Source: Candidatus Aegiribacteria sp. (GTDB taxonomy: Bacteria; Fermentibacterota; Fermentibacteria; Fermentibacterales; JCC-6). From it: a stretch of DNA of 64,000 nucleotides. Below, piece by piece: positions 9,070 to 59,790 of the stretch. The notes below the pieces were generated by a model. That model was not told the DNA's origin. It saw only the letters and a program-made list of their open reading frames with translations, and did not search any database. Position 1 is the stretch's first letter. Each line of letters opens with the position of its first letter. The DNA lies in contig JAIORS010000076.1 in assembly GCA_021108005.1 (NCBI GenBank), positions 8,860 to 72,859 of the forward strand, given 5' to 3'. Position numbers and translations under genes: made by a program.

Positions 9070-9450
9070 TTGTCCGAAAGCATTCTAGAGACTTTTGTAG
9101 AAGCTATTCACCAGCGTCACGGTTACAAGGTTGTAGCCCTGGACATGAGCGATGTACCACTCACGATGGAAGCTTTTATTCTTGCAACCGCTGAGAACAG
9201 GATACAGGCAAGGGCGATTGTTGATCATATAGAAGAAACGGCAAGGAAAACTGGCTTCAGAAAGCACCATATTGAGGGTTACGATGAAGGCAGCTGGATA
9301 CTTGTAGATTACGTTGATCTGGTAATTCACATATTCCTTCCCGAAATCAGGGAATACTACAATCTTGAAATGCTCTGGAGCGATGTCCCAACTATTGAAT
9401 ACAATGATACGGAGGAACCGCCGGATGACTCCAGCCGCTCTGAGGACTGA
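9070..9450 (+). CDS. rsfS: Ribosome silencing factor RsfS (iojap)
   Basis: VALDMSDV...FILATAENRIQARAIVDHIEE...WILVDYVDLVIHIFLPEIREYYNLEMLW. Confidence 0.9.
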   Translation: MSESILETFVEAIHQRHGYKVVALDMSDVPLTMEAFILATAENRIQARAIVDHIEETARKTGFRKHHIEGYDEGSWILVDYVDLVIHIFLPEIREYYNLEMLWSDVPTIEYNDTEEPPDDSSRSED

Positions 9451-34334: not shown

Positions 34335-35435
34335 ATGACCATTTGCACCTGTATTGTATTTGTTCTTTCAGGGATTTTCTCTGTTGATTACCTGCCTCCG
34401 CCTGATGGAATCGGTTCGGAAATACTGCCCCTGAACACAAGATCCTTCGGCATGGGTGGAGTATGTGTCGGAGTGCCTGACAGTACCGGTTTTTCGATGC
34501 TTAATCCCGCGGCTTCCGCCTGGACTCTTGATGGGGGTGTCTGCTTCGGGGGGAAATACAGTGAAGGAGATGTGAAAGCCTGGGATAATCAACTTGGTTT
34601 TCCGATGATCTCGGCCTTTGTGCCCTTGCCGGGAGGAATCGTGATATCCGGAGCCATAGATGGCAGAAGCAGGCTTGATTCCGAGCTTCAGGAAGCTGTC
34701 AGTGACAACTATACAGGAGAATTTACCTGGTCCGGTGGCATTGTGGAAACCTATACCGGCATCTCTATCAGCGCTAACGACTGGCTGGCCTTATCGTTTG
34801 GAGGGCGCTGCTCCTTCGGAAATATCCTTTCCGATATAACACTGATCCCATCCGACAGTATTTCTCCGATTCCGATCAATTCCGTTTACCGTGATGATGC
34901 CCGTTTGAGAATGGCATGGGGCGGCACATTCGGGATACTTGTCAATACTGACCGATTCGGGCTTGGATTCTCGATATCAACCGACAGGAAGGGAACCCTT
35001 GAAGTAAACAGGGACTTTCTAACGTCAGGATCACCTGACAGCTCCAGCAGCATCTATTCCCTTCCAGGTGAAATAACCGCAGGAATATCCTTCAGACCGG
35101 TTGAAAGGCTTCTTTTAGGTGTTGATATCTACAGTAGAAAAGTCCTGAACATCCTCGGAAGCTGTACGGATGACGGAAGTGTATATTCGGTTGGAGCGGA
35201 AGTGAATGTGGGAAACGGCTTATTAACCCGCTGCGGATTCAGCTATATGGATGGATTATGGAGGGACGGGGCTGAAACCTTCTCTGCCGGTGCCGGATAC
35301 AGTTTCAGCGAAGGAAGGGCCGGAATAGATATTGCGGCCGGTTATCAGTACTGGCGCGGCGTTCAGGACCGCTTCCAGGAGGAAACGGTGTTATGTGTTT
35401 CATTATGGGCTACTGAGAAATGGCTGGGACGATAG
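34335..35435 (+). CDS. Outer-membrane beta-barrel protein candidate (PorV/FadL-like pattern)
   Basis: N-terminal TRSFGMGGVCVGVPDSTGFSMLNPAA motif and alternating amphipathic strands with G/S/D turns through to the C-terminus. Confidence 0.4.
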   Translation: MTICTCIVFVLSGIFSVDYLPPPDGIGSEILPLNTRSFGMGGVCVGVPDSTGFSMLNPAASAWTLDGGVCFGGKYSEGDVKAWDNQLGFPMISAFVPLPGGIVISGAIDGRSRLDSELQEAVSDNYTGEFTWSGGIVETYTGISISANDWLALSFGGRCSFGNILSDITLIPSDSISPIPINSVYRDDARLRMAWGGTFGILVNTDRFGLGFSISTDRKGTLEVNRDFLTSGSPDSSSSIYSLPGEITAGISFRPVERLLLGVDIYSRKVLNILGSCTDDGSVYSVGAEVNVGNGLLTRCGFSYMDGLWRDGAETFSAGAGYSFSEGRAGIDIAAGYQYWRGVQDRFQEETVLCVSLWATEKWLGR

Positions 35436-36142
35436 CTGCTTCAGATAGAATCATTGCCATAGTCCCCGCCAGGTACGCTTCCACAAGACTTCCCGGGAAG
35501 CCACTGGCGGACATAGCAGGCATTCCAATGATAATCAGAGTACTGCAGGGGATAAGTGATTCCGTTGACAGGGCAGTGGCGGCAACCGATGATAAACGTA
35601 TTATGAATACCGTACAGAACGCCGGCTTTGAGGCTGTTTATACTGGAGAAGCCATATCAGGTACTCAAAGGGTCTTCGATGCCTGGAAACTGCTTGGTTT
35701 TCCGGGAGATACCATAATAAACGTGCAGGGTGACGAACCCCTTGTAAATGAAGACTGGATCAATTCACTCACATCGGTACCCGCTCAGGATGATCGAATT
35801 GTTACACTTGCCAGGGAAACACCAGCTGAGCTCATAGGATCACCCGATTCAGTCAAAGTCGTGCTTGATGAAGAGCGGGAAGCTCTGTATTTTTCCAGGT
35901 ATCCCATTCCTCATGGTTCGGATAATCTGCTGGAACACATCGGAATCTATTCTTTCAGTCCGGAATCGCTGACGAGGTGCGTCGAAGCAGGGAGTACCTT
36001 TCTTTCCAGGGCTGAAAGGCTTGAACAGCTTGCCTGGCTTGAACGGGGAATTCGAATCCGGGTTGTAACCGGTGAATTCCGGGGAATAAGTGTTGATACT
36101 TCGGAAGACCTTGAGAGGGCGGTGGATTATTTCAGTACATGA
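35420..36142 (+). CDS. kdsB: 3-deoxy-manno-octulosonate cytidylyltransferase
   Basis: IVPARYASTRLPGKPL and VQGDEPL motifs. Confidence 0.9.
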   Translation: MAGTIAASDRIIAIVPARYASTRLPGKPLADIAGIPMIIRVLQGISDSVDRAVAATDDKRIMNTVQNAGFEAVYTGEAISGTQRVFDAWKLLGFPGDTIINVQGDEPLVNEDWINSLTSVPAQDDRIVTLARETPAELIGSPDSVKVVLDEEREALYFSRYPIPHGSDNLLEHIGIYSFSPESLTRCVEAGSTFLSRAERLEQLAWLERGIRIRVVTGEFRGISVDTSEDLERAVDYFST

Positions 36143-36917
36143 TAAAACCCCGTTTTTTGTAATTGGCCCTTGCAGCCTTGAATCCAGGGAAATATCGGCA
36201 AGAGTTGCCGAATTCACGGCAGAACTTATAGGATCACTGGATCAACAGGTCGAGTGGGTTTTCAAGGGTTCCTTTTTAAAGGATAACCGAACCAGCCATA
36301 ATTCCTACCGGGGTCCTGGAATGGATGAAGGCTTGAGGATACTGGAAGAAATTTCTGAATCGTTCGGTGTCAGAACCATTACCGATATTCACAACGCGCA
36401 GCAGGCCGTTCCTGTAGCCCAGGTGGTCGATGTTATCCAGATCCCGGCGTTCCTATGCCGGCAAACCTCGATTCTCGAGGCGGCAGGAGCTGCTGGAAAA
36501 CCGGTGAACATTAAAAAGGGTCAGTTCATGAATCCTGAAAACATGAAGGGTGCTGTAACGAAGACTTCGGAAGCAGGATGTCCTGAAATTTGGTTGACCG
36601 AAAGAGGCACGTTTTTTGGCTACGGTGATCTCGTGGTTGATTTTCGTTCACTTTCGGTAATGAGCGAATTCTCGGACAAGGTTATTCTGGATGTGACCCA
36701 TTCCCTTCAGCGCCCCGGAGCAGCCGGAGGTCAAAGTGGTGGCTGTCGGGAGTACGCTCCCGCCCTTGCGAGGGCAGGTGCGGCATGGGGTGTTGACGGC
36801 CTCTTTATTGAGACGCATCCTGACCCTTCTTCAGCGCTGAGTGATTCCGCGACAATGGTGGATTTCGATACTCTTGAAGCCATGGTAAGGAAAGCTGTTT
36901 TTCATTGGGAAAGCTGA
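36090..36917 (+). CDS. kdsA: 3-deoxy-8-phosphooctulonate synthase
   Basis: FFVIGPCSLES, FKGSFLKDNRTS, IPAFLCRQT and HS.QRPG motifs. The true start is probably one of the in-frame TTG codons (36093 or 36111) or the ATG at 36090. Confidence 0.9.
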   Translation: MLILRKTLRGRWIISVHDKTPFFVIGPCSLESREISARVAEFTAELIGSLDQQVEWVFKGSFLKDNRTSHNSYRGPGMDEGLRILEEISESFGVRTITDIHNAQQAVPVAQVVDVIQIPAFLCRQTSILEAAGAAGKPVNIKKGQFMNPENMKGAVTKTSEAGCPEIWLTERGTFFGYGDLVVDFRSLSVMSEFSDKVILDVTHSLQRPGAAGGQSGGCREYAPALARAGAAWGVDGLFIETHPDPSSALSDSATMVDFDTLEAMVRKAVFHWES

Positions 36918-37399
36918 TAATGCGACTTGAAGGAATAAAACTGCTGGCTCTGGATGTTGACGGAGTACTTACAGACGGAGGGATGTACTACGGTGCTGAG
37001 GGAGTGATTCAGCGATTCAATTCAGCAGACGGGGCGGGGATAATTGAACTTCGAAGGAGGGATTTCCCGGTTGCACTGGTTTCCTTCAGAGATTTCCCCG
37101 CAACCAGGAGAAGGGCAGCTGACCTCGGGATAGAACTGCTGTGTCTGGGCAGCGCCGAGAAGGCAGAAGCCCTTAGAAGTATTTGCGGAAACCTGTCGAT
37201 TGAACCTGAAGCCGCGTTATTCATGGGTGATGGTCTTATGGATCTGCCTGCAATAAGAACTGCAGGAATCGGAGCCTGTCCTTCCAACGCTCACCCTCTT
37301 GTAAAAGCTGAATGTGATATCATCACAGAAAATGCCGGTGGAGATGGAGCTGTCAGAGAGGTGGTGGATATGCTCCTCGAGAGTCAGGAAAATGGCTGA
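36905..37399 (+). CDS. kdsC: Kdo-8-phosphate phosphatase (HAD)
   Basis: LALDVDGVLTDG and GDGLMDLP HAD motifs. 164 aa. Confidence 0.85.
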   Translation: MGKLIMRLEGIKLLALDVDGVLTDGGMYYGAEGVIQRFNSADGAGIIELRRRDFPVALVSFRDFPATRRRAADLGIELLCLGSAEKAEALRSICGNLSIEPEAALFMGDGLMDLPAIRTAGIGACPSNAHPLVKAECDIITENAGGDGAVREVVDMLLESQENG

Positions 37400-38351
37400 C
37401 CTGTACGAAGAAGCTCTGAGGGTGCTCAGGATCGAAGCGGACTGGCTCGAAGCCACAGGAGTACTTGTCGAAAAAACCTTTACCCGGGCGGTTGAGATTC
37501 TGGCGGGAACCGAGGGCAAAATAATCATATGCGGGATGGGCAAATCCGGGCATGTGGGCAGGAAGATAGCCGCAACCATGACCAGTACAGGAAGCCCGGC
37601 GTATTTCCTGCATCCTTCGGAGGGTATCCATGGAGATATCGGAATACTTCAGAAGAACGATGTCGCTCTTGTCCTTTCCAAAAGCGGTGAAACGGAGGAG
37701 ATAGCTCTGCTTCTTCCCGGTTTCATGAGATTGAAAATTCCCATAGTTGCCATAACCGGATCCGACGATTCTTTACTCTCCCGGGCGGCAGATGTGGTTT
37801 TGCCCCTTCCCGATATGAAGGAAGCCTGCCCTTACGATCTCGCGCCTACAGCAAGCACCACCTCGATGATGGCGCTTGGCGATGCCCTGGCAATGGCGCT
37901 GCTTCGGATCAGGAACTTCTCCTCCGATGATTTCGCGCAGGTTCATCCCGGCGGAACACTTGGCCGGAAGCTGCTTACAAGAGTAAGGGATCTGATGGTT
38001 TCCGATTCGCTTCCTGTAATGAACGAATCAGCACCCCTATCGGAAGCGATAGCAATGATGACGGGGCACCGTGGAGTGTGTTTTTCAACTGACGATGAGG
38101 GAAAACTCAGCGGGATTTTCGTTTACGGAGACCTTGGCAGACTCATGAAGAACAGAACCAATGTACTTGATCTGACACTTGAGGATGTTATTGTACGTGA
38201 ACCCTCAATCTGTTTTGAAGAGGAACTTGCGACCATCGCTGTCTCAAGAATGGAAGAACTCGGAATAACCTGTCTCGTGGCTGTTGATCATGATCGTTTG
38301 CCTGTGGGCGTTTTCTATCTTCACGATGCACTCCAGGCAGGAGTGAAATAG
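37392..38351 (+). CDS. kdsD: Arabinose-5-phosphate isomerase (SIS + tandem CBS)
   Basis: CGMGKSGHVGRKIAATMTSTGSP SIS motif and a C-terminal CBS pair. The ATG at 37392 overlaps the kdsC end. Confidence 0.9.
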   Translation: MADLYEEALRVLRIEADWLEATGVLVEKTFTRAVEILAGTEGKIIICGMGKSGHVGRKIAATMTSTGSPAYFLHPSEGIHGDIGILQKNDVALVLSKSGETEEIALLLPGFMRLKIPIVAITGSDDSLLSRAADVVLPLPDMKEACPYDLAPTASTTSMMALGDALAMALLRIRNFSSDDFAQVHPGGTLGRKLLTRVRDLMVSDSLPVMNESAPLSEAIAMMTGHRGVCFSTDDEGKLSGIFVYGDLGRLMKNRTNVLDLTLEDVIVREPSICFEEELATIAVSRMEELGITCLVAVDHDRLPVGVFYLHDALQAGVK

Positions 38352-38358
38352 ATTTGTA

Positions 38359-39270
38359 ATGGCATCAAATCTACCATTCCGTAGATTCAGGCATTCACTG
38401 CAGCTTCCTGTTGTGAAGCTCCTGGCTTTTCTCGGAAGGGTTATGCCCAGGAAGCTTATCTGGGATATCTCTTATTTATTGGGTTCGATTGCGTCCCTGA
38501 TTCCCGGCAGATCCAGGAGAATATTCAATATAAACGAAAAACACATCATTCAGCCCTGCGGTTTGAAAGTCAGTCTCAGCCGTGTATACAGGTACATTAT
38601 TGCAGGGATAATTGATTTCATCAATCTGAATTACAAGTCGGATGAGGATTTTCTCCAGGTGGTGGAAATTCGAGGCGAGGAACACATGAAAGCGGCGCTT
38701 TCCCTCGGGAAGGGAGCCATAGCAATAACCGCGCACTACTCTGCATGGGAGCTTATACCAAGAGCTATTCATCTTCAGGGGCATGAAGTTGGCATTATTA
38801 CAAGGAAGTTGGCTCACAAAGGTACATCCACGTATTTCAACAGTCTGAGAACCCGGCACGGAGTTGCGCTTATTGACAGAGGAAGTGGAATTGCAAGGCT
38901 TATGCGGGTGTTGCGGGATAATACCGCTGTGGGTATCTTGATAGATCAGGATACCCTGGGAGTTGAAAGCGATTTTGTTGACTTCATGGGTCTTCCCGCG
39001 AGAACACCGGTTGGGCCGTCACAGCTGGCTGTAAGATTTGGAATACCCGTTCTTACACTGCATATATCAAGAAGAGAAAACGGGAAGTACCTGCTTGAAA
39101 TCGACGAGGCTCTAGACCTGTCCAAGTACCAGGGTGATAAGGGTTATATTGAACTTACAGCCGATCTTACCGGAAGGATTGAGGAGTGGGTTAATGAAGA
39201 TCCCGAACAGTGGGTCTGGATTCATGAGCGCTGGGCTCGCCGTCCTGGTGGGGCTCCTGGCCTGCGGTAA
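38359..39270 (+). CDS. Lipid A late acyltransferase family (LpxL/HtrB/MsbB)
   Basis: ITAHYSAWELIPRA (HxxxxE-type motif), ILIDQD, and a C-terminal WVWIHERW. Confidence 0.8.
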   Translation: MASNLPFRRFRHSLQLPVVKLLAFLGRVMPRKLIWDISYLLGSIASLIPGRSRRIFNINEKHIIQPCGLKVSLSRVYRYIIAGIIDFINLNYKSDEDFLQVVEIRGEEHMKAALSLGKGAIAITAHYSAWELIPRAIHLQGHEVGIITRKLAHKGTSTYFNSLRTRHGVALIDRGSGIARLMRVLRDNTAVGILIDQDTLGVESDFVDFMGLPARTPVGPSQLAVRFGIPVLTLHISRRENGKYLLEIDEALDLSKYQGDKGYIELTADLTGRIEEWVNEDPEQWVWIHERWARRPGGAPGLR

Positions 39271-39763
39271 CTCCGATAGCGCTGACATGGATCCCGATCG
39301 GGAACCGATGCAGACCGTTGAAGATTTTACATTGGTTCAGTCACTTAAAGGTGATCGGTCATGGCGTCTTGTCAGCGAAGTGGCAATTTATACCGAGGGT
39401 GACAGTCTGCTTCTTATCTCGGATGTTGATCTGACATTCTTTGAAGATGATATTCCAACAACGATTCTGAAGGGCGACTCCGGGCGGGTTGAACTGCAGA
39501 CCGGCCTCATGAGAATATGGGGTAATGTCAACGCTGAAACGGATGACGGCAGGTATCTGGAAACTCAGGAGATAATCTGGGATGATGAAATGGAGATATT
39601 CCACAGTGACTGTCTGGTTGTAATGACAATTCCGGATTCGGCAGGGGAAACCGTGCTTTCCGGAAGAGGTGTTGATCTTGATACCGGTCTCGGAGCCGTT
39701 GAAGGTGTTGATATAGAAGAGAATTTTACCGCTGTATATCTTGGAGATCTGGAACTTGAATAA
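39194..39763 (+). CDS. lptC: LPS export protein LptC-like (lipobox variant)
   Basis: LVGLLACGN leader followed by an LptC-type beta-jellyroll pattern, and position upstream of lptA/lptB. The start is uncertain (39194 or 39224). Confidence 0.65.
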   Translation: MKIPNSGSGFMSAGLAVLVGLLACGNSDSADMDPDREPMQTVEDFTLVQSLKGDRSWRLVSEVAIYTEGDSLLLISDVDLTFFEDDIPTTILKGDSGRVELQTGLMRIWGNVNAETDDGRYLETQEIIWDDEMEIFHSDCLVVMTIPDSAGETVLSGRGVDLDTGLGAVEGVDIEENFTAVYLGDLELE

Positions 39764-40811
39764 CCTGATACTCGTCCTCTTCTCGGTTCTGACAGCTGGC
39801 ACCGGTGTTTTTACAACGTCCGCTGACAGGGCTGTAAGCAGGGATACGGATATTGGAGAGATGGTGATTGACCTGGTTGGCAATGTAGTTGTCACCGATG
39901 GAGAGGTAACCGTAACCTCCGACAGCGGAACTGTATGGCAGGGATCAGGTAATGCCGTTTTCTACAGCAATGTAACCGTTGAAGCTGATACCCTCACGGG
40001 AACTTCTCATTACCTTGAATACATCAAGGAAGCGGGAATGATAACCATGACCGGCAATGTAATGTTAACCGATGGAGAGACGGTTCTGGAAGCCGGAGAA
40101 GTCGTTTACTTCCGGGAATCGGGAAAGGCTACCGCCAGAGATAGCGTACTCATGACAGGCCCGACCCTGGGAAGGGTAGAAGGACAGTATGCGCTGTACG
40201 ACCGGGAGAGAGGAAGCCTGTTCGTAACGGTTGATCCTGTCCTGAGAAGAGTTGAGGACGGTGACAGCTTGATTGTCATAGCTGACAGGCTGGAATTCTT
40301 TCCCGAAGACAATTCTGCGGAAGCCCAGGGCAACGCTTCAGTTTCAATGCCTGAAAAGGATTTCTATTCCACTTCGGAGTATCTGCGATATTTCGGAAAC
40401 GAAGACCGTTTTGAGCTTTTTGGTTCACCCGTTCTCGAATCTGAGGATGCTGAATTAACCGGAGACTGGATGGAGATACTGCTGGAATCCTCAGGCGACC
40501 CACGCTCCGTCAGGATAGAAGGGGGCGCTTCCGGCCATTTCCTTGATACAGGTGTTGATCCGCCTGCCGAAACATGGTTCTCGTCGGAACGGGCTTTCTT
40601 CGCATTCAAGAACAATGATCCTGATTCAATAATGCTCACAGGGTCCGCAACACTCAGGATGAAATCCGGTGGTGAAGCTGCCTCAAGAAATGAAATGAAC
40701 ACGGTCAGAGGTAACACTCTGCTTATCAGTTTTGAGAATGGAGAGGCAGTGGAAGTTATTGTATCGGGCAGCGTAACCGGAACGTACAGCTACCTCGGAG
40801 GTAATCCATGA
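39741..40811 (+). CDS. lptA: OstA/LptA-like periplasmic protein (extended, repeated OstA-like fold)
   Basis: Signal/anchor followed by repeated GNV.VT.G....A..A.Y patterns typical of OstA_N. It is flanked by lptC and lptB. Confidence 0.6.
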   Translation: MEIWNLNNLILVLFSVLTAGTGVFTTSADRAVSRDTDIGEMVIDLVGNVVVTDGEVTVTSDSGTVWQGSGNAVFYSNVTVEADTLTGTSHYLEYIKEAGMITMTGNVMLTDGETVLEAGEVVYFRESGKATARDSVLMTGPTLGRVEGQYALYDRERGSLFVTVDPVLRRVEDGDSLIVIADRLEFFPEDNSAEAQGNASVSMPEKDFYSTSEYLRYFGNEDRFELFGSPVLESEDAELTGDWMEILLESSGDPRSVRIEGGASGHFLDTGVDPPAETWFSSERAFFAFKNNDPDSIMLTGSATLRMKSGGEAASRNEMNTVRGNTLLISFENGEAVEVIVSGSVTGTYSYLGGNP

Positions 40812-41560
40812 CCGCTCATAAGGTCAGAAATCCAAAGTTGGAAATTTTAAGAACTGACAAACTAATCAAGAGGTACCGGAGAAGGGCAGTTGTCAACGGT
40901 ATCTCACTGTCCGTCAGCCGGGGTGAGACGGTTGGGCTTTTAGGGCCTAACGGTGCCGGGAAGACTACTACTTTTAACCAGATTGTTGGTTTCATCAGAC
41001 CGGACTCCGGTGATGTATATATGGACGATATAGTCCTCACGCATTTGCCCATGTATAAAAGATGCAGGCTTGGAATAGGTTATCTGCCCCAGGAATCAAG
41101 CGTGTTCAGAAAGTTGTCTGTAGCTGACAACCTGATGAGTATTCTGGAAACAACGGGGCTGAAAAAGAGGGAGCGAAAAAAAAGACAGGCCCGGCTCCTT
41201 GCGGATCTGGGTATTGAAAAGCTTGCTGATCAGAAGGCTTACACTCTTTCCGGAGGAGAGAGAAGAAGAGTTGAGATAGCAAGAGCCCTTGTTACGGACC
41301 CGGCGTTTCTGCTTCTGGATGAACCCTTTGCGGGGATAGACCCTATAGCTGTTGATGATATTCAGAGTATCATCATGGACCTCAGAACCAGAGGGCTTGG
41401 TATTCTCATCACCGATCATAACGTAAGGGAAACCCTTGAAATTACCGACAGAGCTTATATTATGTACGATGGAAAAATCTTGATATCCGGTTCCGCCCAG
41501 GAACTTGCTGAAGACCCCGAAGCCAGAAAGATCTACCTGGGAGAAAGGTTCAAGTTGTAG
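40808..41560 (+). CDS. lptB: LPS export ABC transporter ATP-binding protein
   Basis: Walker A GPNGAGKTT, signature LSGGERRRVEIARAL, Walker B LLLDEPFAGIDP. Confidence 0.9.
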   Translation: MTAHKVRNPKLEILRTDKLIKRYRRRAVVNGISLSVSRGETVGLLGPNGAGKTTTFNQIVGFIRPDSGDVYMDDIVLTHLPMYKRCRLGIGYLPQESSVFRKLSVADNLMSILETTGLKKRERKKRQARLLADLGIEKLADQKAYTLSGGERRRVEIARALVTDPAFLLLDEPFAGIDPIAVDDIQSIIMDLRTRGLGILITDHNVRETLEITDRAYIMYDGKILISGSAQELAEDPEARKIYLGERFKL

Positions 41561-41561
41561 T

Positions 41562-43001
41562 ATGCCCGATTTCAAGTTGAGTCAGAATCTCCGAATGGTC
41601 CAGACCCAGAAACTGGCGCTTACCCAGAGGATCAGGCAGGCTCTGGAAATTCTTCAGGTTCCATCCCTGGACCTTGAAAATCTGATAAAACAGGAACTCC
41701 AGGAAAATCCGCTTCTTGAGCAGAGCGGTCCCGAGGACAGGAAAGCGGATGAAAAAAATGATGGAGATGAGAACCGCGAGAGGGAAGAGCCATGGGACGA
41801 GGAGCCTTCCAGAAGCGATAGCAAGGAAGATGATACTCTTGATATTCTCAGAAAACTGGACGAGCACTCCGGTGACAACTTTTCAGAGCCTTACCGTGGT
41901 GATGACGAGCCCTGGATTCGTGAACCCCCAAGCGAGTCAACGCTTTACGAGTATCTTCTTAAACAGGTATGGTCGATTATGCTTCCAGGTGACATTGAGG
42001 AAGCTGTGGTTTACATAGTCTACTCTCTTGACAGGCACGGGTTGTTATCCCTTCCAATTTTTGAACTGCAGTCAGCATGGGAAGGAAACCCCGATCTCAT
42101 TGTACAGGCTATTGAGATCGTCCGTACTCTTGAACCGACCGGTGTCGGAGCGCTGAGCGCGAGCGGCGCTCTTGAAATGCAGCTGGAAGAACTGGGATAT
42201 GAGCATGACAGTCTTGAGTACCGGATTGTAGCTGAGCATTTCAGCGAAATCGCTGAGAGAAAGATAAAGGATATAGCGGCAGCTGAAGGTGTATCGGCAC
42301 ATAGGATTCAGGAAGCAGTTGATCGAATATCTGTTCTTAATCCGTGGCCTGGCAACGAATTCACATCATCGGCGAATACAGCTGTAATACCTGATATTAT
42401 CATCGTCAAAATAGAAGACCATTTTGAGGCAATTCTCAACGACAACAGGTTTCCGCACCTGATGATATCCGCAAGGAACAGACGGATACTCGAATCACCC
42501 GGTACTTCATCGAAGGAGAAGGAATACGTAAAGAACAAGTTCCGGAAAGCTTCATGGTTCATTAAGGCTATAAGGCAGCGGCAGGAAACCGTTACCAGGA
42601 TAGGAGAATTCATAACTGACTATCAGAAAGATTATTTTGAGTGGGGCATTGAGGGGCTGCGGCCTCTTACACTGCAGATTGTGGCCGATGCTCTCGGGTA
42701 CAATCAGTCCACTATAAGTCGAGCCATAAACGGAAAATACGTTCAGTCGCCAAAGGGCATTCACGAAATGAGGTTTTTCTTCAGCAGGGCTCTTCCGGGC
42801 GAGAGGGGTGATGTCTCCAGCAGAACCGTCAAAGATGAACTAAGAAAAATCATTGAAACGGAGGATAAGAGCAAACCTCTGTCCGATACGAAGCTTGTTC
42901 TGGCACTTGAGGCTGCCGGCATGAAAGTCAAGAGGCGGACGGTCGCGAACTACCGGTTGGAAATGGATATTCCATCCGCGAGAAAAAGAAAAAGATACTG
43001 A
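41562..43001 (+). CDS. rpoN: RNA polymerase sigma-54 factor
   Basis: N-terminal Q/L-rich region I (LSQNLRMVQTQKLALTQ), an acidic region II, an HTH, and the RpoN box RRTVANYRLEMDIPSARKRK. Confidence 0.95.
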   Translation: MPDFKLSQNLRMVQTQKLALTQRIRQALEILQVPSLDLENLIKQELQENPLLEQSGPEDRKADEKNDGDENREREEPWDEEPSRSDSKEDDTLDILRKLDEHSGDNFSEPYRGDDEPWIREPPSESTLYEYLLKQVWSIMLPGDIEEAVVYIVYSLDRHGLLSLPIFELQSAWEGNPDLIVQAIEIVRTLEPTGVGALSASGALEMQLEELGYEHDSLEYRIVAEHFSEIAERKIKDIAAAEGVSAHRIQEAVDRISVLNPWPGNEFTSSANTAVIPDIIIVKIEDHFEAILNDNRFPHLMISARNRRILESPGTSSKEKEYVKNKFRKASWFIKAIRQRQETVTRIGEFITDYQKDYFEWGIEGLRPLTLQIVADALGYNQSTISRAINGKYVQSPKGIHEMRFFFSRALPGERGDVSSRTVKDELRKIIETEDKSKPLSDTKLVLALEAAGMKVKRRTVANYRLEMDIPSARKRKRY

Positions 43002-48173: not shown

Positions 48174-49961
48174 ATGACCTCAGAAGAACTAAGACGACTC
48201 TATTTTGACTTTTTCATCGGGAAAGGTCACTCCGTTATCCAGGGGGCTTCACTCATTCCACAGGAGGATTCCACCATACTGTATACCCCGGCGGGAATGC
48301 AGCCCCTTGTTCCGTACCTGCTGGGAGAGAAGCATCCTGCGGGAAGAAGACTCGTTGATGTTCAGAAGTGCATTCGCACAGGGGACATCGAAGAGGTGGG
48401 AGACGCATCCCATCTGACTTTTTTCGAGATGCTGGGAAACTGGTCCCTTGGAGACTATTTCAAGCGCGAATGCATCACCTGGAGTTTCGAGTTTCTTACA
48501 TCCGGCTCGTGGCTGGGTTTCAAGCCTGAGCAGCTTCACGTAACTGTATTTGCCGGGGACGAACAAGTACCCCCGGACGAGGAGGCTGCATCGATCTGGG
48601 AGGAAGTCGGGATTCCCGTGGAACGGATTTACTTTCTGGGAAGGGACGACAACTGGTGGGGACCCACGGGAAATACAGGCCCCTGCGGGCCCGATACCGA
48701 GATATTCATCGACACCGGAAAACCACCCTGCGGTCCCGACTGCAAACCGGGCTGTGGCTGCGGAAAATACTTTGAGATATGGAACGATGTTTTTATGGAA
48801 TACCTCAGAACCGCCGACGGACGGTACGTTCCCCTTGAACAGAAAAATGTTGATACTGGAATGGGGGTAGCCAGGACAGTCGCGATGATGAACGGCCACG
48901 AGACAATTTACGATATACCCCAGTTCCAGCCTCTCTTCGGATTTCTGAAAAAACTTTCAGGGCTCGGTTCTGAGCCTGATGACCAGGCACTAAGATCCCT
49001 CAGGATCATATCCGACCATATCAGGACAGCCACACATATTCTGGGGGATGACCAGGGTATTCCACCCTCGAATCTTGACAGAGGGTACGTACTCAGAAGG
49101 CTTATTCGCCTTGCTGTGAGGCATGGAAGGAAACTGGGTATAGACGATCCATTTTCTTCGAGGCTTGCAGAGATCGTCATCGATGTAGAATCACCGGTTC
49201 ATGAGGAATTATCGCGAAACCGGAAATTCATTCTTGATGAATTATCCCTCGAGGAGTCAAGATTCGAGAAGACACTTCAATCCGGCCTTCGCGAATTCGA
49301 GAAGCTCCTTCCGAATCTGATGAGGAATCCCGCGAGAACCATCCCCGGAAGAATCGCTTTCAGGCTGTACGATACGTTTGGCTTCCCTGTTGAATTCACG
49401 GCTGAATTGGCTGCGGAGAACGATATGACAGTTGACATGGAAGGTTACAGAAAGGCCTTCGACAAGCATAGAGAGCTTTCCAGACAGGGAGGAGAGGAAA
49501 AATTCAAGGGAGGTCTTTCCGATAACAGCGAAATGGTAACAAGGCTTCATACCACGACTCATCTTCTACATCAGGCTCTGAGGGAAATCCTGGGTGATCA
49601 TGTGGAACAGAAGGGAAGCAATATAACCGAGAAAAGGCTGCGTTTCGATTTCAGTCATCCCGATAAAATGACGAACGAAGAAATCGCTCTGGTTGAAAAC
49701 AGGGTCAACGAAATAATAGAGGCCGACCTGCCTGTTATCTGTGAGGAGACTCAACTTGAAACCGCGCTTGAAATGGGTGCCATCGGCCTGTTCAGAAACA
49801 GGTACGGTGATATGGTGAAGGTTTACAGGATAGGGGATTTCTCAATTGAGATATGCGGAGGTCCCCACGCCGGCAGGACAGGGGAACTGGGCAGGTTCAG
49901 GATAGTGAAGGAGAAAAGCTCCTCAAGCGGTGTAAGAAGAATAAGGGCGGTACTGGAATGA
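48174..49961 (+). CDS. alaS: Alanine--tRNA ligase, compact form (595 aa)
   Basis: Class II core (LTFFEMLGNWSLGDYFK, FEIWNDVFMEY, DTGMG) and editing-site zinc motifs HTTTHLLHQAL and CGGPH. The protein ends ~30 aa after CGGPH. Confidence 0.85.
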   Translation: MTSEELRRLYFDFFIGKGHSVIQGASLIPQEDSTILYTPAGMQPLVPYLLGEKHPAGRRLVDVQKCIRTGDIEEVGDASHLTFFEMLGNWSLGDYFKRECITWSFEFLTSGSWLGFKPEQLHVTVFAGDEQVPPDEEAASIWEEVGIPVERIYFLGRDDNWWGPTGNTGPCGPDTEIFIDTGKPPCGPDCKPGCGCGKYFEIWNDVFMEYLRTADGRYVPLEQKNVDTGMGVARTVAMMNGHETIYDIPQFQPLFGFLKKLSGLGSEPDDQALRSLRIISDHIRTATHILGDDQGIPPSNLDRGYVLRRLIRLAVRHGRKLGIDDPFSSRLAEIVIDVESPVHEELSRNRKFILDELSLEESRFEKTLQSGLREFEKLLPNLMRNPARTIPGRIAFRLYDTFGFPVEFTAELAAENDMTVDMEGYRKAFDKHRELSRQGGEEKFKGGLSDNSEMVTRLHTTTHLLHQALREILGDHVEQKGSNITEKRLRFDFSHPDKMTNEEIALVENRVNEIIEADLPVICEETQLETALEMGAIGLFRNRYGDMVKVYRIGDFSIEICGGPHAGRTGELGRFRIVKEKSSSSGVRRIRAVLE

Positions 49962-50896
49962 AATACGTTATGACCGCATTTACTGTTTTGTTTCTGTTTG
50001 CCGCAGCAAACCTCGAGGCTTATGAAATATCGGATTTTTCGGGAACCTGGGAAACAACGTATGGAACGATGTACCTTCAGCAGGAGAATTCCCATGTTAG
50101 CGGACATTATACGTACGAATCGTACTCCAGCATCGAGGGTGAGGTCAGCGAGGACGGGAAGCTTGTTTTTACTTACAGCGAGCCTTCTGCCTCCGGTGAA
50201 GGCTGGTTCGAACTGTCAGGTGACACCATGAGCTTTGCAGGTATGTGGCGACCGGACGGGGGAGGCCAGTGGTACGAATGGGAAGGTTACAGGGCCGGCG
50301 CAGGGATACCTCCGTCCAACTGGCTTGTAATTCTCGAATCCGAATGGCAGTCGTCCCTTTCCGAGCAGGAATACTCCTTCGGTGAAATGCTGGAAGCATG
50401 GTTCGCGAGGGTATCAGGAGTGAATGTAAGGCACAGATTCGTTCATGATGTGGACGACCTTGCGGCTTTCTGCCTTGAATCATCGGGTCTTCCCGGAGAC
50501 GTTTACCTGGTAATCGCTTCCCATGGATCTACTTCGGGTATGGAACTGGCATCGGGAACCATCTCTTCAAGGGAGTTCATCGATGCTTTAAGACCCTGCA
50601 GCAACCTGGCAATGATACATTTCAGCTGTTGCGAGATCATGTCCGGCAGAATGCCTGAAGCCATAGTATCATCCAGAAGCGGGTGGCCACAGGATTTTGT
50701 GGTTTCCGGATACTCGCGAAGTGTGGACTGGGGGGCAAGCGGCATGATAGAGATATTCTATTTCAACCAAATGCTTGAGAATGGCTTTTCACCCCCCGAT
50801 GCCGCAAACAGCGTTATTGATGATATAGATTTCGCCGGACAGTCATCCACAAAATGGATGGACGCCGCTGGATTCACCTGGATTCAAGCCGAATGA
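49958..50896 (+). CDS. Secreted protein with a C-terminal clan-CD (caspase/legumain-like) His/Cys pattern
   Basis: Signal peptide MKYVMTAFTVLFLFAAANLEA. The ATG overlaps the alaS stop (ATGA). A hydrophobic strand followed by SHG (VYLVIASHGS) and a second followed by SCC (LAMIHFSCCEIMSG) lie ~40 aa apart. Confidence 0.45.
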   Translation: MKYVMTAFTVLFLFAAANLEAYEISDFSGTWETTYGTMYLQQENSHVSGHYTYESYSSIEGEVSEDGKLVFTYSEPSASGEGWFELSGDTMSFAGMWRPDGGGQWYEWEGYRAGAGIPPSNWLVILESEWQSSLSEQEYSFGEMLEAWFARVSGVNVRHRFVHDVDDLAAFCLESSGLPGDVYLVIASHGSTSGMELASGTISSREFIDALRPCSNLAMIHFSCCEIMSGRMPEAIVSSRSGWPQDFVVSGYSRSVDWGASGMIEIFYFNQMLENGFSPPDAANSVIDDIDFAGQSSTKWMDAAGFTWIQAE

Positions 50897-56224: not shown

Positions 56225-57361
56225 ATGTTCAAGAAACTTGAGATTGTAGAGTGGATGGATGAGAGTGGGAAAGAAATTGTCCACAGGATTCCACAGAGTG
56301 GTTCAGGTGAGTTCCGCATTGGAACCCAGGTTGTAGTCAGAGAAAGCCAGGATGCCGTATTCTTCCGGGATGGAAAGGCAATGGATACCTTCGGTCCGGG
56401 AAGGCATACGATAACAACCGAGAATATCCCCCTGCTGACAGGTATTGTCAGTACTCTCTTTGAGGGTAAGGATTCCCCCTTCAGGGCAACGGTTTTCTAC
56501 ATTAACAAGAAGACCTTCACCAATATGAAATGGGGAACCAAGGAGCCGATAATATTCAGGGACAAGGAACTCTCGATTGTAAGGTTGAGAGCCTTTGGCA
56601 GCTTTTCAATGAAAGTTGACCAGAGCCAGCTCTTCATCAACAAGATAGTCGGAACAGAGGGAAGATTCTCAACCGATGAGATAGAGGGTTTTCTTAAGGG
56701 CATGATAATATCAAGGCTTGCCGACCTTCTTGGTGAAACCATTGAAAGCATATTCGATCTTGCGCAATACTACGATGAGATAGGTACACTGGCTAAGTCC
56801 AGGCTTGGCGACGATTTTGGGAAATACGGAATACAGCTGGTTGATTTCTACGTTCAGGCTATCACGCCTCCTGAGGAAGTTCAGGAAAGAATAGATGAAC
56901 GCAGCGCAATGGCTGCGCTTGGCGATATGAATCAGTACATGCGTTTCAAGACAGCCACCGCCATGGGCGATGCCGCAAAGAACGAAAGCGGCGGCGGAGC
57001 CGCCGGCGCAGGAGTCGGTATGGGTGCCGGACTGGGAATGGGAATGACAATGGCCAATATGATGGGTCAGACTATGTCGGGAGGCGGCCAGGGCTCAAAC
57101 GGTTCTGGTAATTCCGGTGCCGCTGCACTGGTTGTATGCCCCTCGTGCGGAAAGAACGTTGTTCCGGGTAAATTCTGTCCCGAGTGCGGTAAACCCCTTG
57201 GCTTGACATGTCCCGAATGCGGTAGTGTTGTTCCTCCTGGAACGAAATTCTGTCCCGAGTGTGGTGCGAAGATCGGCGGCGGGAAGGTATGTTCCAAATG
57301 CGGCGCAGACATCCCGGCAGGATCCAAATTCTGCCAGGAATGCGGAGAGAAACAGGAATAA
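56225..57361 (+). CDS. SPFH/band-7 domain protein (YdjI/COG4260-like) with a Gly-rich linker and four C-terminal zinc ribbons
   Basis: The N-terminus IVEWMDESGKEIVHRIP..G..VVVRESQDAVFFRDGK is typical of the family. The tail has CPSCG..FCPECG, CPECG..FCPECG, CSKCG..FCQECG. Confidence 0.8.
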   Translation: MFKKLEIVEWMDESGKEIVHRIPQSGSGEFRIGTQVVVRESQDAVFFRDGKAMDTFGPGRHTITTENIPLLTGIVSTLFEGKDSPFRATVFYINKKTFTNMKWGTKEPIIFRDKELSIVRLRAFGSFSMKVDQSQLFINKIVGTEGRFSTDEIEGFLKGMIISRLADLLGETIESIFDLAQYYDEIGTLAKSRLGDDFGKYGIQLVDFYVQAITPPEEVQERIDERSAMAALGDMNQYMRFKTATAMGDAAKNESGGGAAGAGVGMGAGLGMGMTMANMMGQTMSGGGQGSNGSGNSGAAALVVCPSCGKNVVPGKFCPECGKPLGLTCPECGSVVPPGTKFCPECGAKIGGGKVCSKCGADIPAGSKFCQECGEKQE

Positions 57362-59026
57362 ATGCCGGGGACGGTTCACGAACTGCTTGAGAAACGAGCA
57401 GTAGACACACCTGGCAAAATCGCTCTTATAGACGACCGGCGGGAATTGAGTTTTGCCGCCTGGTGGCGGGTATCCTGTCATATAGCGTCTCTCCTGCAGA
57501 AAGCAGGAGTCCGACAGGGTTTTGTTGTGGGAGTTGTATCCGACTGTTCTTCTTTTCTCCCATGTACCTTCACTGCGATTTCCATGCTGGGGGCGAAATT
57601 CGTTTCAATGAATCCGGATTGGCCCGCTCAGGAAAGGATGCGGGTTTTCAGCAGGTGGTCGGACCGCCTGGTTCTGACTGCGGATAATATTGAGTACTGT
57701 TCCCAGCCTGATGAGATAACCCTTTCACTCGACGATGATATCTATCAGGGCACCGGAATACCTCTTGAAGTTCCGTTTCTGAATGGCGGCGAGGAATTTT
57801 ATCTTAACGTTACATCGGCATCCACAGGCCAGGCAAAGATAGCGCCTACGACTCACGATCAGCTCCTGGCGAACACAGAAGGCGTTACTGCAACCATGGG
57901 TTTAACCTGTGATGATGTGAACCTGTCCATATTTGGCGTCTATGGTCATCCACACGAGCTCTTTATGAGGGGATTGTATCTTGGAGGCAGGACGGTCCTC
58001 ACCGAGCACAGATACCCCAGAGATTTGCTCCATCTGATCTCAAAAAAGGGTGTTACCGCAATCATGGCTCTACCAACGCAGCTCATAAGCCTGTCGCATA
58101 TGTGGAATCGAATTGATACTGATCTTTCATCCGTGAGAATCTCGGAAGCCGGAGGTATGTTCGTCTCAGAAGAATTCGCGGTGAATTATACCGAGATAAC
58201 CGGTGTAGAACTCGTACCTGTATGGGGAAGCACTGAAACCGCCGGAGTAGGTCTTGTTGGAAAGAGCGGTATACAGGGATTCACATCGGTCGTAGATGGT
58301 TACGAGGTAGAACTGCGTGATCTGTCCGGCAACAGGATGGATGAAGAGGGTAGTGGTGAATTGTGGATTTCAGGTCCAGGAGTTGTCAACAGGTATCTCG
58401 GGGACAGGCCGCAGACGGAAGAAGCTTTCCTTGATGGATGGTATAGAACGGGGGATATGTTTAAATCGGAGAACGGAAGATTGATCTTTCTTGGGCGCCG
58501 GGGAGGGCTGATAAAAGCAGCCGGCCTGAAGGTTTATCCCCTTGAGCTCGAACTGGCTATTCTGAAGCATCCTTCAATAATAGACGCCTGTGTCGTAGGT
58601 AGAGATCATCCCACAAGAGGCGAGATGCCATCCGCCTATATCGTAGTCAGGCCCGGAACGGAGCTTACAGTTGCCGGGATGAGAGCATTTCTCAGGCAGT
58701 ACCTCGATGAGTACAAGATTCCCAGGCTTATTAATTTCGTTCACGGGTTACCCAGAACCGCCAACGGCAAAATTGACAGAAAGGCTGTGGGAACCAGAGA
58801 GCTCGTTCCAGATTTCCGAGGTGAGCTACTTCGTTCCGATGTGGAACTGGTAAGGCTCATAAACCATAGAGCGGCACTCATGAACGAAATCGGAGGAGGT
58901 TTCGATCCGACATGGGTTGATGACCAGGTGGATAACGCCATGGGGCATAACGCCGGTCCCATATCGGACAGTTCAATTAGAGATATTATCAGATTCATCA
59001 TCAGCGAACTTGGGAAGAGGCAATAA
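57362..59026 (+). CDS. Acyl/aryl-AMP-forming ligase (ANL superfamily) with a ~78-aa chorismate-mutase-like C-terminal extension
   Basis: ANL motifs [30 protein letters not shown] and [12 protein letters not shown]. The ORF then continues with ..[25 protein letters not shown]...[13 protein letters not shown]. The start abuts the SPFH stop (TAAATG). Confidence 0.8.
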
Positions 59027-59790
59027 TGGACATAAGATCCGTAGAAATAGGTAATGTCCATATAGGCGGGAAAGCCTCTATCCTCATCGCCGGTCCGTGT
59101 TCGGTGGAAAATATCGAAATGCTCAGGGAAATTGCGGCAGCTGCGGTAGAAGCGGGTGTTTCCATATTGCGAGGCGGTTCGTTCAAACCCAGAACATCTC
59201 CCTACTCATTTCAGGGTCTGGGCGTTGAAGGATTCGAGATGCTTTCTCTGGTGAGCCGTGAATTCAACATTCCGGTGGTCAGTGAAGTCCTGGCAATTAG
59301 TCAGATAGAATCCGCTGAGAAGCACATCGATATGATCCAGGTTGGAGCCAGGAATATGCACAATTTTCCACTGCTCTCCGCTCTCGGTAGAACGGAAAAA
59401 CCCATTCTCCTGAAAAGGGGATTCATGGCCACAATTGAAGAGTGGCTTATGGCGGCGGAGTATATCGTAAAGGAAGGTAATGACAGAGTTGTCCTGTGTG
59501 AAAGGGGAATAAGGACTTTTGAACCCTGGACAAGGAATACATTGGATATTTCGGCTGTTCCACTTGCAAGAATGCTCGGCGGATATCCGGTTATTGTGGA
59601 TCCGTGTCATGCTTCTGGAAGAAGGGATCTTCTTGAACCACTGTCTCTTGCAGGATTAGCGGCAGGTGCTGACGGTATTATGCTGGAGGTTCATCCTGAT
59701 CCGGACAAGGCTCTTTCCGACGGTGGGCAATCACTTTCGATTCCTGAATTGATAAGACTCGCCGGGAAACTGCTTGAAAAAAATAACTGA
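59026..59790 (+). CDS. 3-deoxy-7-phosphoheptulonate (DAHP) synthase, type I-beta, core only
   Basis: [40 protein letters not shown]. 254 aa with no N- or C-terminal regulatory domain. TAATG overlap with the ligase. Confidence 0.85.

Follow-up and report, generated by a model that had tools for sequence, protein, structure and literature searches.

A predicted pseudo-chorismate mutase domain fused to an adenylate-forming ligase and encoded beside a core-only DAHP synthase in Fermentibacterota and other uncultured lineages

The stretch of DNA analyzed here (hereafter the window; 64,000 nucleotides from Candidatus Aegiribacteria sp.) encodes a 554-residue protein in which an ANL ligase carries a C-terminal chorismate mutase (CM)-like domain (57362..59026, stop included; recognized from the ORF list, Pfam, and homologues), followed without a gap by a core-only type I-beta DAHP synthase (DAHPS) of 254 residues (59026..59790; NCBIfam profiles and a PDB match). 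All coordinates refer to the forward strand. The ligase-CM fusion is genuine, with no lost stop or start, and ANL-CM fusions form a large, widespread, and uncharacterized family in metagenome-assembled genomes that is not peculiar to the window. The CM-like tail is predicted to be a catalytically dead pseudo-CM, and its strongly conserved adjacency to DAHPS in several lineages indicates that the two are probably functionally linked.

The first module of the protein is an intact ANL adenylate-forming ligase whose structural neighbors are aryl-acid and alicyclic-acid CoA/AMP ligases. All of the ANL core motifs (A3, A5, A7, A8, and A10, including the catalytic Lys) are present. The AMP-binding N-terminal domain spans residues 9-346 (57386..58399; Pfam PF00501, E = 1e-39; AF2 pLDDT ~90) and contains the P-loop TSASTGQAK (residues 151-159, nt 57812-57838) and the motifs GHPHE and PVWGSTET, all conserved in alignments, as are TSxSTGxx..., GRRGGxIK, and GKxDR. 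The P-loop departs from the canonical TSGTTGxPKG in the Fermentibacterota, but not in distant lineages. The AMP-binding_C subdomain covers residues 395-470 (58544..58771; Pfam PF13193, E = 3e-17), and the A10 motif (residues 464-475, nt 58751-58786) extends past this match; the catalytic Lys470 is invariant in the family alignment (A4). No named ANL equivalog (MenE, benzoate-CoA ligase, FadD, or others) was reached, with NCBIfam scores falling far under the cut-offs (best PRK06187, 228.5 bits against 476; MenE TIGR01923, 177.6 against 330; benz_CoA_lig, 163 against 375). The top 30 Foldseek neighbors of the ligase are aryl-acid activators, comprising benzoate-CoA ligase, FscC/EntE/DhbE, PchD/CahJ, MenE, and anthranilate-CoA ligase.

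The preliminary description of this locus, made from the sequence alone, held that the ORF runs on beyond the A10 motif, and it does so by 78-79 residues past residue 475. A short, flexible linker at residues 476-484 (58787..58813), without secondary structure and with lower pLDDT in the full-length AF2 model, leads into a predicted three-helix AroQ/CM_2-fold domain at residues 485-554 (58814..59023; Pfam, PDB profile match, AF2, and Foldseek), with helices at residues 485-510, 516-529, and 536-553. Pfam CM_2 (PF01817) aligns to residues 486-553 and scores 19.8 bits when the whole protein is used and 27.0-27.6 bits for the isolated tail (gathering cut-off 27); it also matches 21 of the 21 family tails scanned, with a best E of 1e-16. 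A profile of the tail family finds 2d8d in the PDB (E = 2.3e-7), and its first four matches (2d8d, 5gmu, 3nvt, and 5j6f) are CM domains. The AF2 model of the isolated tail (pLDDT 90.2) shows the three helices of an AroQ protomer at tail positions 6-31, 37-49, and 57-72, and Foldseek places it with 5go2, 3nvt, 5j6f, and 2d8d (probability 1.0, TMq 0.77-0.91). The closest solved structures to the tail are AroA(G)-type CM domains, and its nearest CM relatives in a library of 1.8 billion proteins are mostly stand-alone CMs. Profile matches and model thus agree on the CM-like nature of the extension that had been proposed from its helical pattern, the structural check suggested at that time included, and the extension is predicted with confidence to be a CM-fold (AroQ) domain. 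When the full-length monomer is modeled by AF2, the pLDDT of the tail is only 50-66 and its position is undefined.

The possibility had also been raised that an assembly error created this arrangement, a frameshift or the loss of a stop or start codon having joined the ligase ORF to an independent CM or CM-DAHPS gene. Such errors do occur in this material: an arginyl-tRNA synthetase (ArgRS) in the window is seemingly split into two ORFs, and in Ca. Sabulitectum silens (L061) ligase, CM, and DAHPS appear as a single ORF, a candidate natural triple fusion that was rejected as the artefact of a 1-nt deletion in a G run, with a second frameshift in the same gene. For the ligase-CM fusion itself the chance of an artefact is practically negligible. 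The identical 554-residue protein is found on four independently assembled contigs from different assemblies, and the suggested search for ligase homologues returned more than 100 full-length proteins (46-92% identity, 99-100% query coverage), all of which span the tail. The same layout is present in ~58 Fermentibacterota species genomes and the ANL-CM architecture in several other lineages (identity range 31-92%), and no homologue examined has a stop or alternative start in the stretch from the A10 motif to the tail.

The polar active site of CM_2 domains (EcCM Arg11', Arg28, Lys39, Asp48, Arg51, Glu52, and Gln88) is not intact in the tail. Alignments to solved CM domains reveal an 8-residue deletion in the H1-H2 loop, between G513 and F514, which removes Lys39 and leaves GGG without a cationic substitute, so that the absence of the catalytic Lys after the first helix had been read correctly. 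Arg51 is replaced by W518, a Trp invariant in the orthologues, and Glu52 by V519 (Val or Leu in the orthologues). The 'terminal S...Q' previously taken as a CM feature is not conserved: Q554 aligns to Gln88 only in the window protein and in one other (P0001), and among the other orthologues listed the majority stop one residue earlier (at 553 aa or the equivalent), with R, G, or K as the last residue and no counterpart of Gln88. The residues that are kept are Arg11 (R486; R/K in the family), Arg28 (R503; invariant), and Asp48 (D515); of these ligand-anchoring residues, Arg11 and Asp48 are retained in the Fermentibacterota and Arg28 more generally. Stand-alone CMs of the same clade keep Lys39, Arg51, Glu52, and Gln88. 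Despite the loss of the transition-state-stabilizing residues, the tail is under purifying selection and is as conserved as the ligase, with a mean pairwise identity among 95 proteins of 63% versus 56% for the ligase N-domain and with 12 invariant positions in the tail family.

The DAHPS is predicted to be catalytically intact. It scores 380 bits against PRK08673 (cut-off 335) and 356 bits against TIGR01361 (cut-off 268), its best PDB match is 1vs1 (E = 2e-86), and it contains the KPRT motif. Residues C25, H195, E221, and D232 align without gaps to the metal ligands C102, H272, E298, and D309 of the Thermotoga maritima enzyme. It had been described as lacking a regulatory domain, and this holds, since the NCBIfam alignments begin only at position ~82 of the profiles and the ORF cannot be extended upstream because each ORF is listed from the earliest start codon that follows a stop. 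Identity as a KDO8P synthase was considered and rejected; KDO8PS models score 110-118 bits, below cut-off and about one third of the scores of the DAHPS models, and the window has a kdsA of its own elsewhere, within a kdsB-kdsA-kdsD-lpxL-lptA-lptB cluster (35.4-41.6 kb of the window). The nearest relatives are core-only DAHPSs or forms with a ferredoxin-like domain, and the DAHPSs paired with non-Fermentibacterota ANL-CM genes form one cluster in a neighbor-joining tree. The suggestion that the AroA(G) order of CM then DAHPS has been preserved here finds no indication, and neither does transfer of the CM domain from an AroA(G)-type DAHPS: 0 of the 120 nearest DAHPSs are CM-fused, a search for an N-terminal CM domain among its relatives having been one of the checks suggested, and the nearest CMs mostly stand alone.

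The junction between the two genes was reported as a stop/start overlap and can be read directly in the sequence as TAATG (59024..59028), where TAA (59024-59026) and ATG (59026-59028) share one A (GGC AAT AAT GGA), an arrangement that suggests translational coupling. Of 58 Fermentibacterota genomes, 51 have -1 to +3 nt separating the ligase stop from the DAHPS start. A purine-rich, Shine-Dalgarno-like stretch, GGGAAGAGG (59012..59020), lies in the last tail codons (LGKR), 5-13 nt 5' of the DAHPS ATG. Purine-rich equivalents (GGGGAAGAGG, GGGGAGGGG, and GAAAGG) occupy the same place in the majority of the Fermentibacterota junctions inspected and are weak or absent in four loci (L052, L054, L056, and L057). 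No Rfam RNA elements were found in the window, and promoter and terminator scans did not rise above chance level.

The architecture had been presented as new, but it is found across a family whose members pipelines auto-annotate as 'acyl-CoA synthetase/chorismate mutase' and UniRef and JGI label 'chorismate mutase'. A literature search produced no relevant paper on an ANL-CM fusion or on the chorismate metabolism of Fermentibacteria. A core-only DAHPS lies beside the ANL-CM gene in 9 of the 11 lineages sampled. The module is universal among the Fermentibacterota genomes sampled; it is seen again in LCP-89, Schekmanbacteria, and further uncultured lineages, where it frequently lies within envelope-glycan clusters. 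In two of the ANL-CM lineages (the Coatesbacteria and P0215 types) no DAHPS was found within the flanks seen, and none was found near the tail-less relatives of the ligase. An orthologous DUF362 gene sits beside the ANL-CM/DAHPS pair in 7 loci. When metagenomes were scanned with the DUF362 orthologues, 79 of the 80 loci proved to be distant paralogues with neither DAHPS nor ANL-CM, and the scan yielded one additional instance of the pair, with aroB (L097). A B12-radical-SAM gene was considered as shared synteny between Fermentibacterota and LCP-89 and discarded at only 27% identity. Among the larger ORFs elsewhere in the window, Pfam searches found no shikimate, chorismate-utilizing, or DUF362 genes.

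By analogy and from the sequences, we tentatively propose, with slightly less than even confidence, that the non-catalytic pseudo-CM module couples the ligase to the DAHPS in a pathway starting from DAHP. The pseudo-CM domain would act without catalysis, would dimerize like all AroQ domains, and would dock onto or gate the DAHPS, doing in trans what the CM of the Bacillus, Listeria, and Geobacillus AroA(G) enzymes does in cis, in a role that can be likened to that of the free CM of the mycobacterial CM-DAHPS complex. In this manner the carbon that enters at DAHPS would be matched to the ligase's consumption of a carboxylic acid derived from the pathway. In favor of coupling stand the recurrent pairing with DAHPS and its absence beside tail-less relatives, the tight junction with its Shine-Dalgarno-like stretch inside the tail codons, the conservation of a dead domain, the clustering of the paired DAHPSs outside Fermentibacterota, and two precedents: CM domains that serve type I-beta DAHPSs purely as regulatory gates, and a non-covalent CM-DAHPS complex (PMC8408635, PMC5526877). 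Lys39, Arg51, Glu52, and Gln88 are kept by known regulatory CMs (PMC5526877) and lost here, so prephenate-type regulation cannot simply be assumed and it is doubtful that the tail has an effector site of the type described for them. Several observations count against coupling: adjacency by itself is also compatible with proteins that share a pathway and never touch, aroB intervenes at one locus and many loci lie in envelope-glycan clusters, two ANL-CM lineages have no DAHPS in the flanks seen, the tail is unplaced in the full-length model, and the DAHPS shows no specific relationship to the CM-fused enzymes.

The first of these points can be developed into an explanation of its own, which we consider somewhat unlikely and which is not mutually exclusive with coupling. 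Here, a dedicated, feedback-free DAHPS would feed a shikimate-type branch whose carboxylic-acid product is activated by the ligase, and the CM-like domain would serve the ligase only, with no regulation involved. Feedback-free DAHPS isozymes are found in many secondary-metabolite clusters. The ligase product might decorate an envelope glycan or lipid, and the tail might be a dimerization module or a capture module for a chorismate-like or cyclohexene-carboxylate ligand. The uniformly aryl-acid-activating structural neighbors of the ligase fit this explanation, as do the DHQ synthase gene (aroB) between ANL-CM and DAHPS at one locus, the accompanying DUF362 gene, and the retained ligand-anchoring residues. 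It is also in line with the neighborhoods of the non-Fermentibacterota pairs, which contain Wzx-like flippase, glycosyltransferase, Bac_transf, B12-radical-SAM, and LpxL-like genes, and with the location of tail-less relatives in polysaccharide clusters too. The Fermentibacterota pairs, however, are surrounded by glycolytic and not glycan genes, and a shared pathway leaves unexplained why it should be a CM fold that is repeatedly found beside DAHPS and why DAHPS is absent beside the tail-less relatives. A highly unlikely explanation is that the tail is an active, non-canonical CM or a related pericyclic enzyme (e.g., an isochorismate-pyruvate lyase), making the protein bifunctional. The CM_2 fold, the database names, and the Arg11, Arg28, and Asp48 equivalents of the window protein speak for activity, and the lineages without adjacent DAHPS keep Arg11, Arg28, Arg51, and Glu52; further, the mycobacterial CM is reported to be weak alone and activated by DAHPS (PMC7762937). 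Against this stand the deleted Lys39 loop, the Trp and Val at the positions of Arg51 and Glu52, and the missing Gln88 of most orthologues, in a fold whose polar active-site residues are all reported to be retained without exception, in catalytic and regulatory CM_2 domains alike (PMC5526877). The residues lost also differ between the DAHPS-linked ANL-CM lineages, which is the pattern expected once catalysis is no longer selected.

The CM-DAHPS partnership is a textbook case of allostery through domain recruitment, known as an N-terminal fusion, a C-terminal fusion, and a free complex. If coupling is correct, a dead CM-fold module that is carried on another enzyme and whose gene is coupled to that of a bare DAHPS would add a fourth form to these, and would offer a natural example of a pseudoenzyme domain acting as a go-between. 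One genome study predicts that the Fermentibacterota make no more than eight amino acids and no aromatic ones (PMC5030696), and a module that is universal in the sampled members and recurs elsewhere near envelope-glycan genes points to an unrecognized use of the first step of the shikimate pathway. A more speculative and rather improbable extension is that the ANL-pseudoCM/DAHPS module, joined by DUF362 in many lineages, constitutes a dedicated, unrecognized route from DAHP or a shikimate intermediate to an adenylate- or CoA-activated block for a non-amino-acid product (for example, an envelope glycoconjugate decoration), running even where an inability to synthesize aromatic amino acids has been reported for the bacteria concerned, and with the dead CM as the allosteric subunit of DAHPS. 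The analysis provides a functional lead for two orphan families, the ANL-CM ligases and one DUF362 subfamily.

Among known systems, the AroA(G) enzymes of Bacillus subtilis, Listeria monocytogenes (3NVT), and Geobacillus sp. (5J6F), where the CM domain is a regulatory gate on a type I-beta DAHPS (PMC8408635), resemble the locus in associating an AroQ CM with a type I-beta barrel and in placing the CM coding sequence directly 5' of that of DAHPS. They differ in that the CM-like domain here is joined to an unrelated upstream enzyme and not to DAHPS, in that their CM keeps the Lys39, Arg51, Glu52, and Gln88 that the tail is without (PMC5526877), and in that the DAHPS here is phylogenetically not close to the CM-fused DAHPSs. 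The CM and DAHPS lie in different reading frames with a stop between them, and the DAHPS matches the AroA(G) model PRK12595 over positions 106-349 only and the tail over positions 7-79 only; the artefactual L061 ORF is the one case in which they share a frame. The DAHPSs of Prevotella nigrescens and Porphyromonas gingivalis, with a C-terminally linked CM, demonstrate that other CM/DAHPS orders are possible, with reciprocal allostery (PMC8408635, PMC12202928), but there the two form one polypeptide and the active CM is the sole CM of the cell. The separate CM and DAHPS polypeptides of Mycobacterium tuberculosis and Corynebacterium glutamicum, which cooperate (PMC8408635, PMC7762937), are a precedent for a partnership in trans; that complex pairs a type II DAHPS with a free, catalytically competent AroQ-delta CM, whereas a complex in the present case would pair a type I-beta DAHPS with a degenerate CM-like domain on a 476-residue ligase.

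The DAHPS itself is most similar in sequence to the unregulated, core-only type I-beta enzymes of Aeropyrum pernix (1VS1, 293 bits) and Pyrococcus furiosus (1ZCO, 261 bits), which are of the same length class and have no N-terminal domain; no CM-like module is known directly upstream of DAHPS in either organism. On the ligase side, the closest structural neighbors are BadA, MenE, EntE/DhbE, and PchD, and to our knowledge no characterized aryl-acid ANL enzyme has a fused AroQ domain. PchB is an AroQ-fold enzyme that retains its catalytic Lys and makes the acid that PchD adenylates, and PchD and PchB thus resemble the fusion as an aryl-acid ligase and an AroQ protein that cooperate in one pathway.

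The ligase gene of the window lies on the forward strand at 57362..59026 (554 aa) and combines Pfam AMP-binding (residues 9-346) and AMP-binding_C (395-470) domains, the latter followed by the A10 motif (464-475), with a C-terminal chorismate mutase (CM)-like CM_2 domain (486-553). The DAHP synthase (DAHPS) gene occupies 59026..59790 (+; 254 aa), such that the ligase TAA (59024-59026) and the DAHPS ATG (59026-59028) have one base in common, and a purine-rich, SD-like stretch, GGGAAGAGG (59012-59020), lies within the final codons of the tail. ORFs, Pfam, and NCBIfam all agree with the preliminary description of a CM-like tail on a ligase (ANL-CM) whose gene overlaps that of a core-only DAHPS. 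The ligase ATG (57362) also abuts the TAA of an SPFH/Band-7 gene (56225-57364), the product of which ends in three zinc-ribbon repeats. The order hyp174, SPFH-Zn-ribbon, ligase-CM, DAHPS, PFK, GAPDH, PGK, and TPI recurs at a second locus, L005, where the ligase is 49% identical.

An artefact is excluded as the origin of the fusion. Four contigs, each from a different assembly, encode the identical 554-aa protein, and the three contigs examined all have the overlapping DAHPS. Among 5.8 billion proteins searched are >100 homologues (545-580 aa) from Ca. Fermentibacteria, Aegiribacteria, and Sabulitectum (46-92% identity, 99-100% query coverage each) and a second set of 585-606 aa (32-35% identity) with a Pfam CM_2 call already attached, and no homologue has a stop codon between A10 and the tail. 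The earlier suggestion of a stop or start lost through assembly error can therefore be set aside. Among GTDB species genomes, both genes occur together at 58 Fermentibacterota loci, with -1 to +3 nt between ligase stop and DAHPS start in 51 of them, and most Fermentibacterota junctions place a purine-rich SD-like stretch inside the terminal tail codons; the junction is thus of a form suited to translational coupling. The sole apparent ligase-CM-DAHPS single ORF, in Ca. Sabulitectum silens JCC-6 (L061), is false: a G run immediately 5' of the ligase stop (L061:5540-5700) has lost 1 nt, and a second frameshift lies near the ligase N-terminus, the two together creating the ORF.

The tail has a CM fold. 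Against a cut-off of 27, the CM_2 profile gives 19.8 bits for the full-length protein and 27.0-27.6 bits for the isolated tail, and it matches 21 of 21 tails from three sub-lineages. A profile built from 22 Fermentibacterota tails retrieved solved CM domains and little else from the PDB: 2d8d (E = 2.3e-7) was best, with weaker matches to the CM-like domain of the bifunctional B. subtilis AroA(G) (5gmu, 1.6e-4) and to the Listeria (3nvt, 3e-4) and Geobacillus (5j6f, 0.015) DAHPSs. The AlphaFold2 model of the tail consists of three helices (pLDDT 90), for which the first 11 Foldseek matches are those CM domains (probability 1.0, TMq 0.77-0.91), and these concurring results confirm the AroQ CM-like helices proposed initially. 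Among 1.84 billion representatives, 2746 proteins match the tail profile, led by other ANL-CM fusions (551-598 aa, aligned at the C-terminus) and then by stand-alone CMs (85-150 aa) and a few CM-prephenate-dehydratase proteins, a ranking that assigns the tail to the 'N-x-G-P' AroQ clade in general and not specifically to AroA(G).

The polar residues that define the CM active site are, in EcCM numbering, Arg11', Arg28, Lys39, Asp48, Arg51, Glu52, and Gln88, and all catalytic and regulatory CM_2 domains are reported to keep them (PMC5526877). In an alignment with EcCM and the B. subtilis AroA(G), the window tail has R486 for Arg11' (R or K in orthologues), R503 for Arg28 (invariant), D515 for Asp48 (D in most orthologues, N in some of P0060 type), W518 for Arg51 (invariant Trp), V519 for Glu52 (V or L), and Q554 for Gln88 (missing from most orthologues). 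The catalytic Lys was correctly noted as missing, as Lys39 falls in an 8-residue deletion between GGG and F, deleted in the orthologues as well. Stand-alone CMs of the same clade retain Arg11, Arg28, Lys39, Arg51, and Glu52. Other DAHPS-linked tails are altered at Arg11 (L/F), Asp48 (F/Y), and Arg51 (Y) in lineage A, at Arg11 (E/Q) and Glu52 (G/S) in lineage B, and at Arg11 (E) and Glu52 (I) in the P0197 lineage; such differing losses would be expected where catalysis is no longer selected. Catalytic residues have been lost, yet selection acts on the tail, which is conserved to the same degree as the enzyme: across 95 proteins, mean pairwise identity reaches 63% for the tail, compared with 56% for the ligase N-domain and 64% for its C-subdomain, and 12 tail positions are invariant, including the family-specific W518, Q522, and G-H-N-x-G-P. 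The full-length AlphaFold2 model (ligase pLDDT about 90) retains the three tail helices at pLDDT 50-66 after an unstructured linker (about 466-484), which fits a separate module needing a partner.

The downstream enzyme is a type I-beta DAHPS by NCBIfam (PRK08673, 380 bits, cut-off 335; TIGR01361, 356 bits, cut-off 268); the profile alignment begins only at position about 82, which shows that the N-terminal regulatory domain is missing. It retains all four metal ligands along with the KPRT motif, and the closest solved relatives are those of A. pernix (1vs1, 293 bits), T. maritima, Listeria, Geobacillus, and P. furiosus. None of the 120 nearest DAHPSs is fused to a CM; each is either core-only or equipped with the ferredoxin-like domain. 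KDO8PS scores are <=87 bits, and identity as KdsA was rejected because the window has its own kds/lpt cluster (35.4-43.0 kb). This canonical LPS cluster (35420-43001) comprises kdsB (35420-36142), kdsA, a second DAHP_synth_1 gene (36090-36917), kdsD, SIS-CBS (37314-38351), lpxL-like (38359-39270), lptA-like (39741-40811), lptB (40808-41560), and rpoN (41505-43001). The ligase itself conserves core motifs A3, A5, A7, A8, and A10, including Lys470, and no NCBIfam equivalog comes near its own cut-off. The top PDB matches by sequence are the LgrA adenylation domain, benzoate-CoA ligase, and MenE, and the top 30 structural neighbours are almost all aryl-acid activators (among them benzoate-CoA ligase, FscC/EntE/DhbE, PchD/CahJ, MenE, anthranilate-CoA ligase, and 4-chlorobenzoyl-CoA ligase), a kinship that serves as a lead only since E-values are similar throughout the superfamily.

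ANL-CM genes show conserved coupling to a core-only DAHPS. Outside the Fermentibacterota, ANL-CM genes precede core-only DAHPS genes (261-276 aa) in candidate division LCP-89 and relatives, in lineage A, in the P0143, P0197, P0164, and P0266 lineages, in Schekmanbacteria, where the ligase gene is uncalled owing to 38 N, and at the metagenomic locus L097; DAHPSs paired with non-Fermentibacterota ANL-CM genes group together in a neighbour-joining (NJ) tree. At L097, a 3-dehydroquinate synthase (L097:10379-11569; Pfam DHQ_synthase and DHQS_C), followed by a Wzx-like flippase, separates the two genes, so that the module in this lineage feeds at least to dehydroquinate. No DAHPS was found in the available flanks of the tail-bearing Coatesbacteria (L078, L081) and P0215 types, the tails of which keep Arg11, Arg28, Arg51, and an acidic residue at 52 (Glu; Asp in L078). 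The closest tail-less ligases (499-510 aa) nest within the tail-bearing radiation (NJ tree) and belong to polysaccharide clusters containing no DAHPS, in Nitrospirota (L082:3998-5497), Desulfobacteraceae (L083:2309-3841), and an unclassified bacterium (L084:3965-5494).

Orthologues of one DUF362 protein, 403-425 aa long and 33-41% identical to each other, of a family sharing a Pfam clan with LarA racemases (PMC11770544), directly adjoin the pair at seven loci from several lineages (L090:8515-9726, L091:8603-9880, L093:8604-9821, L095:6801-8033, L097:6980-8233, L006:4662-5891, L077:2540-3736) and form a conserved triad with ANL-CM and DAHPS; no such orthologue was found in the window or the Fermentibacterota flanks. 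Neighbours are PFK, GAPDH, PGK, and TPI in Fermentibacterota and envelope-glycan genes elsewhere (Wzx-like flippase, GT2-Bac_transf, B12-radical-SAM, LpxL-like, PMT_2). The three tail-less genes lie directly 3' of a polyprenyl-phosphate sugar transferase gene, and GT2-Bac_transf takes the equivalent place 5' of ANL-CM at L090 and L096, a hint of an original role for the ligase family in glycan synthesis.

The window genome is an Aegiribacteria-like member of the Fermentibacterota. The amino acids that Hyd24-12/Fermentibacter genomes can make were predicted by Kirkegaard et al. (PMC5030696) to be limited to Gly, Ser, Cys, Thr, Asn, Asp, Glu, and Gln; the pair is nonetheless found in Ca. Fermentibacter daniensis Dam_1 (L056). 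Elsewhere in the window, arginyl-tRNA synthetase (9365-11105) is apparently split over two overlapping ORFs, with the N-domain and start of the catalytic domain at 9365-10138 and DALR at 9957-11105, implying that the reading frame shifts between 9957 and 10138, either genuinely or through an indel of the assembly. The alanyl-tRNA synthetase ORF (48174-50896 region) has just 595 aa (catalytic domain and SAD) and is overlapped by a 347-aa ORF without Pfam match, and could represent either a short enzyme with a second, independent gene or one gene broken in two.

On type I-beta DAHPS, CM domains function purely as gates, and CM domains can also operate as chains of their own (PMC8408635). Based on this precedent, the tracking of the tail with DAHPS adjacency, and the coupling-type junction, we tentatively favour a non-catalytic tail that would dock or regulate, tying the ligase to DAHPS. 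The main rival, in which the enzymes share a pathway and the tail serves the ligase alone, seems somewhat less likely, and the two readings are mutually compatible. That the tail is an active CM is highly improbable given its lost catalytic residues.

The architecture had been put forward as new, and this holds for the literature searched, where no description of the ANL-CM fusion was found, but not for the databases, which carry it only under automatic labels and include >100 homologues. Compared with AroA(G) of Bacillus, Listeria, and Geobacillus, the window tail is not specifically of that kind, and ANL-CM/DAHPS is classed as a new form of the known CM-DAHPS partnership.
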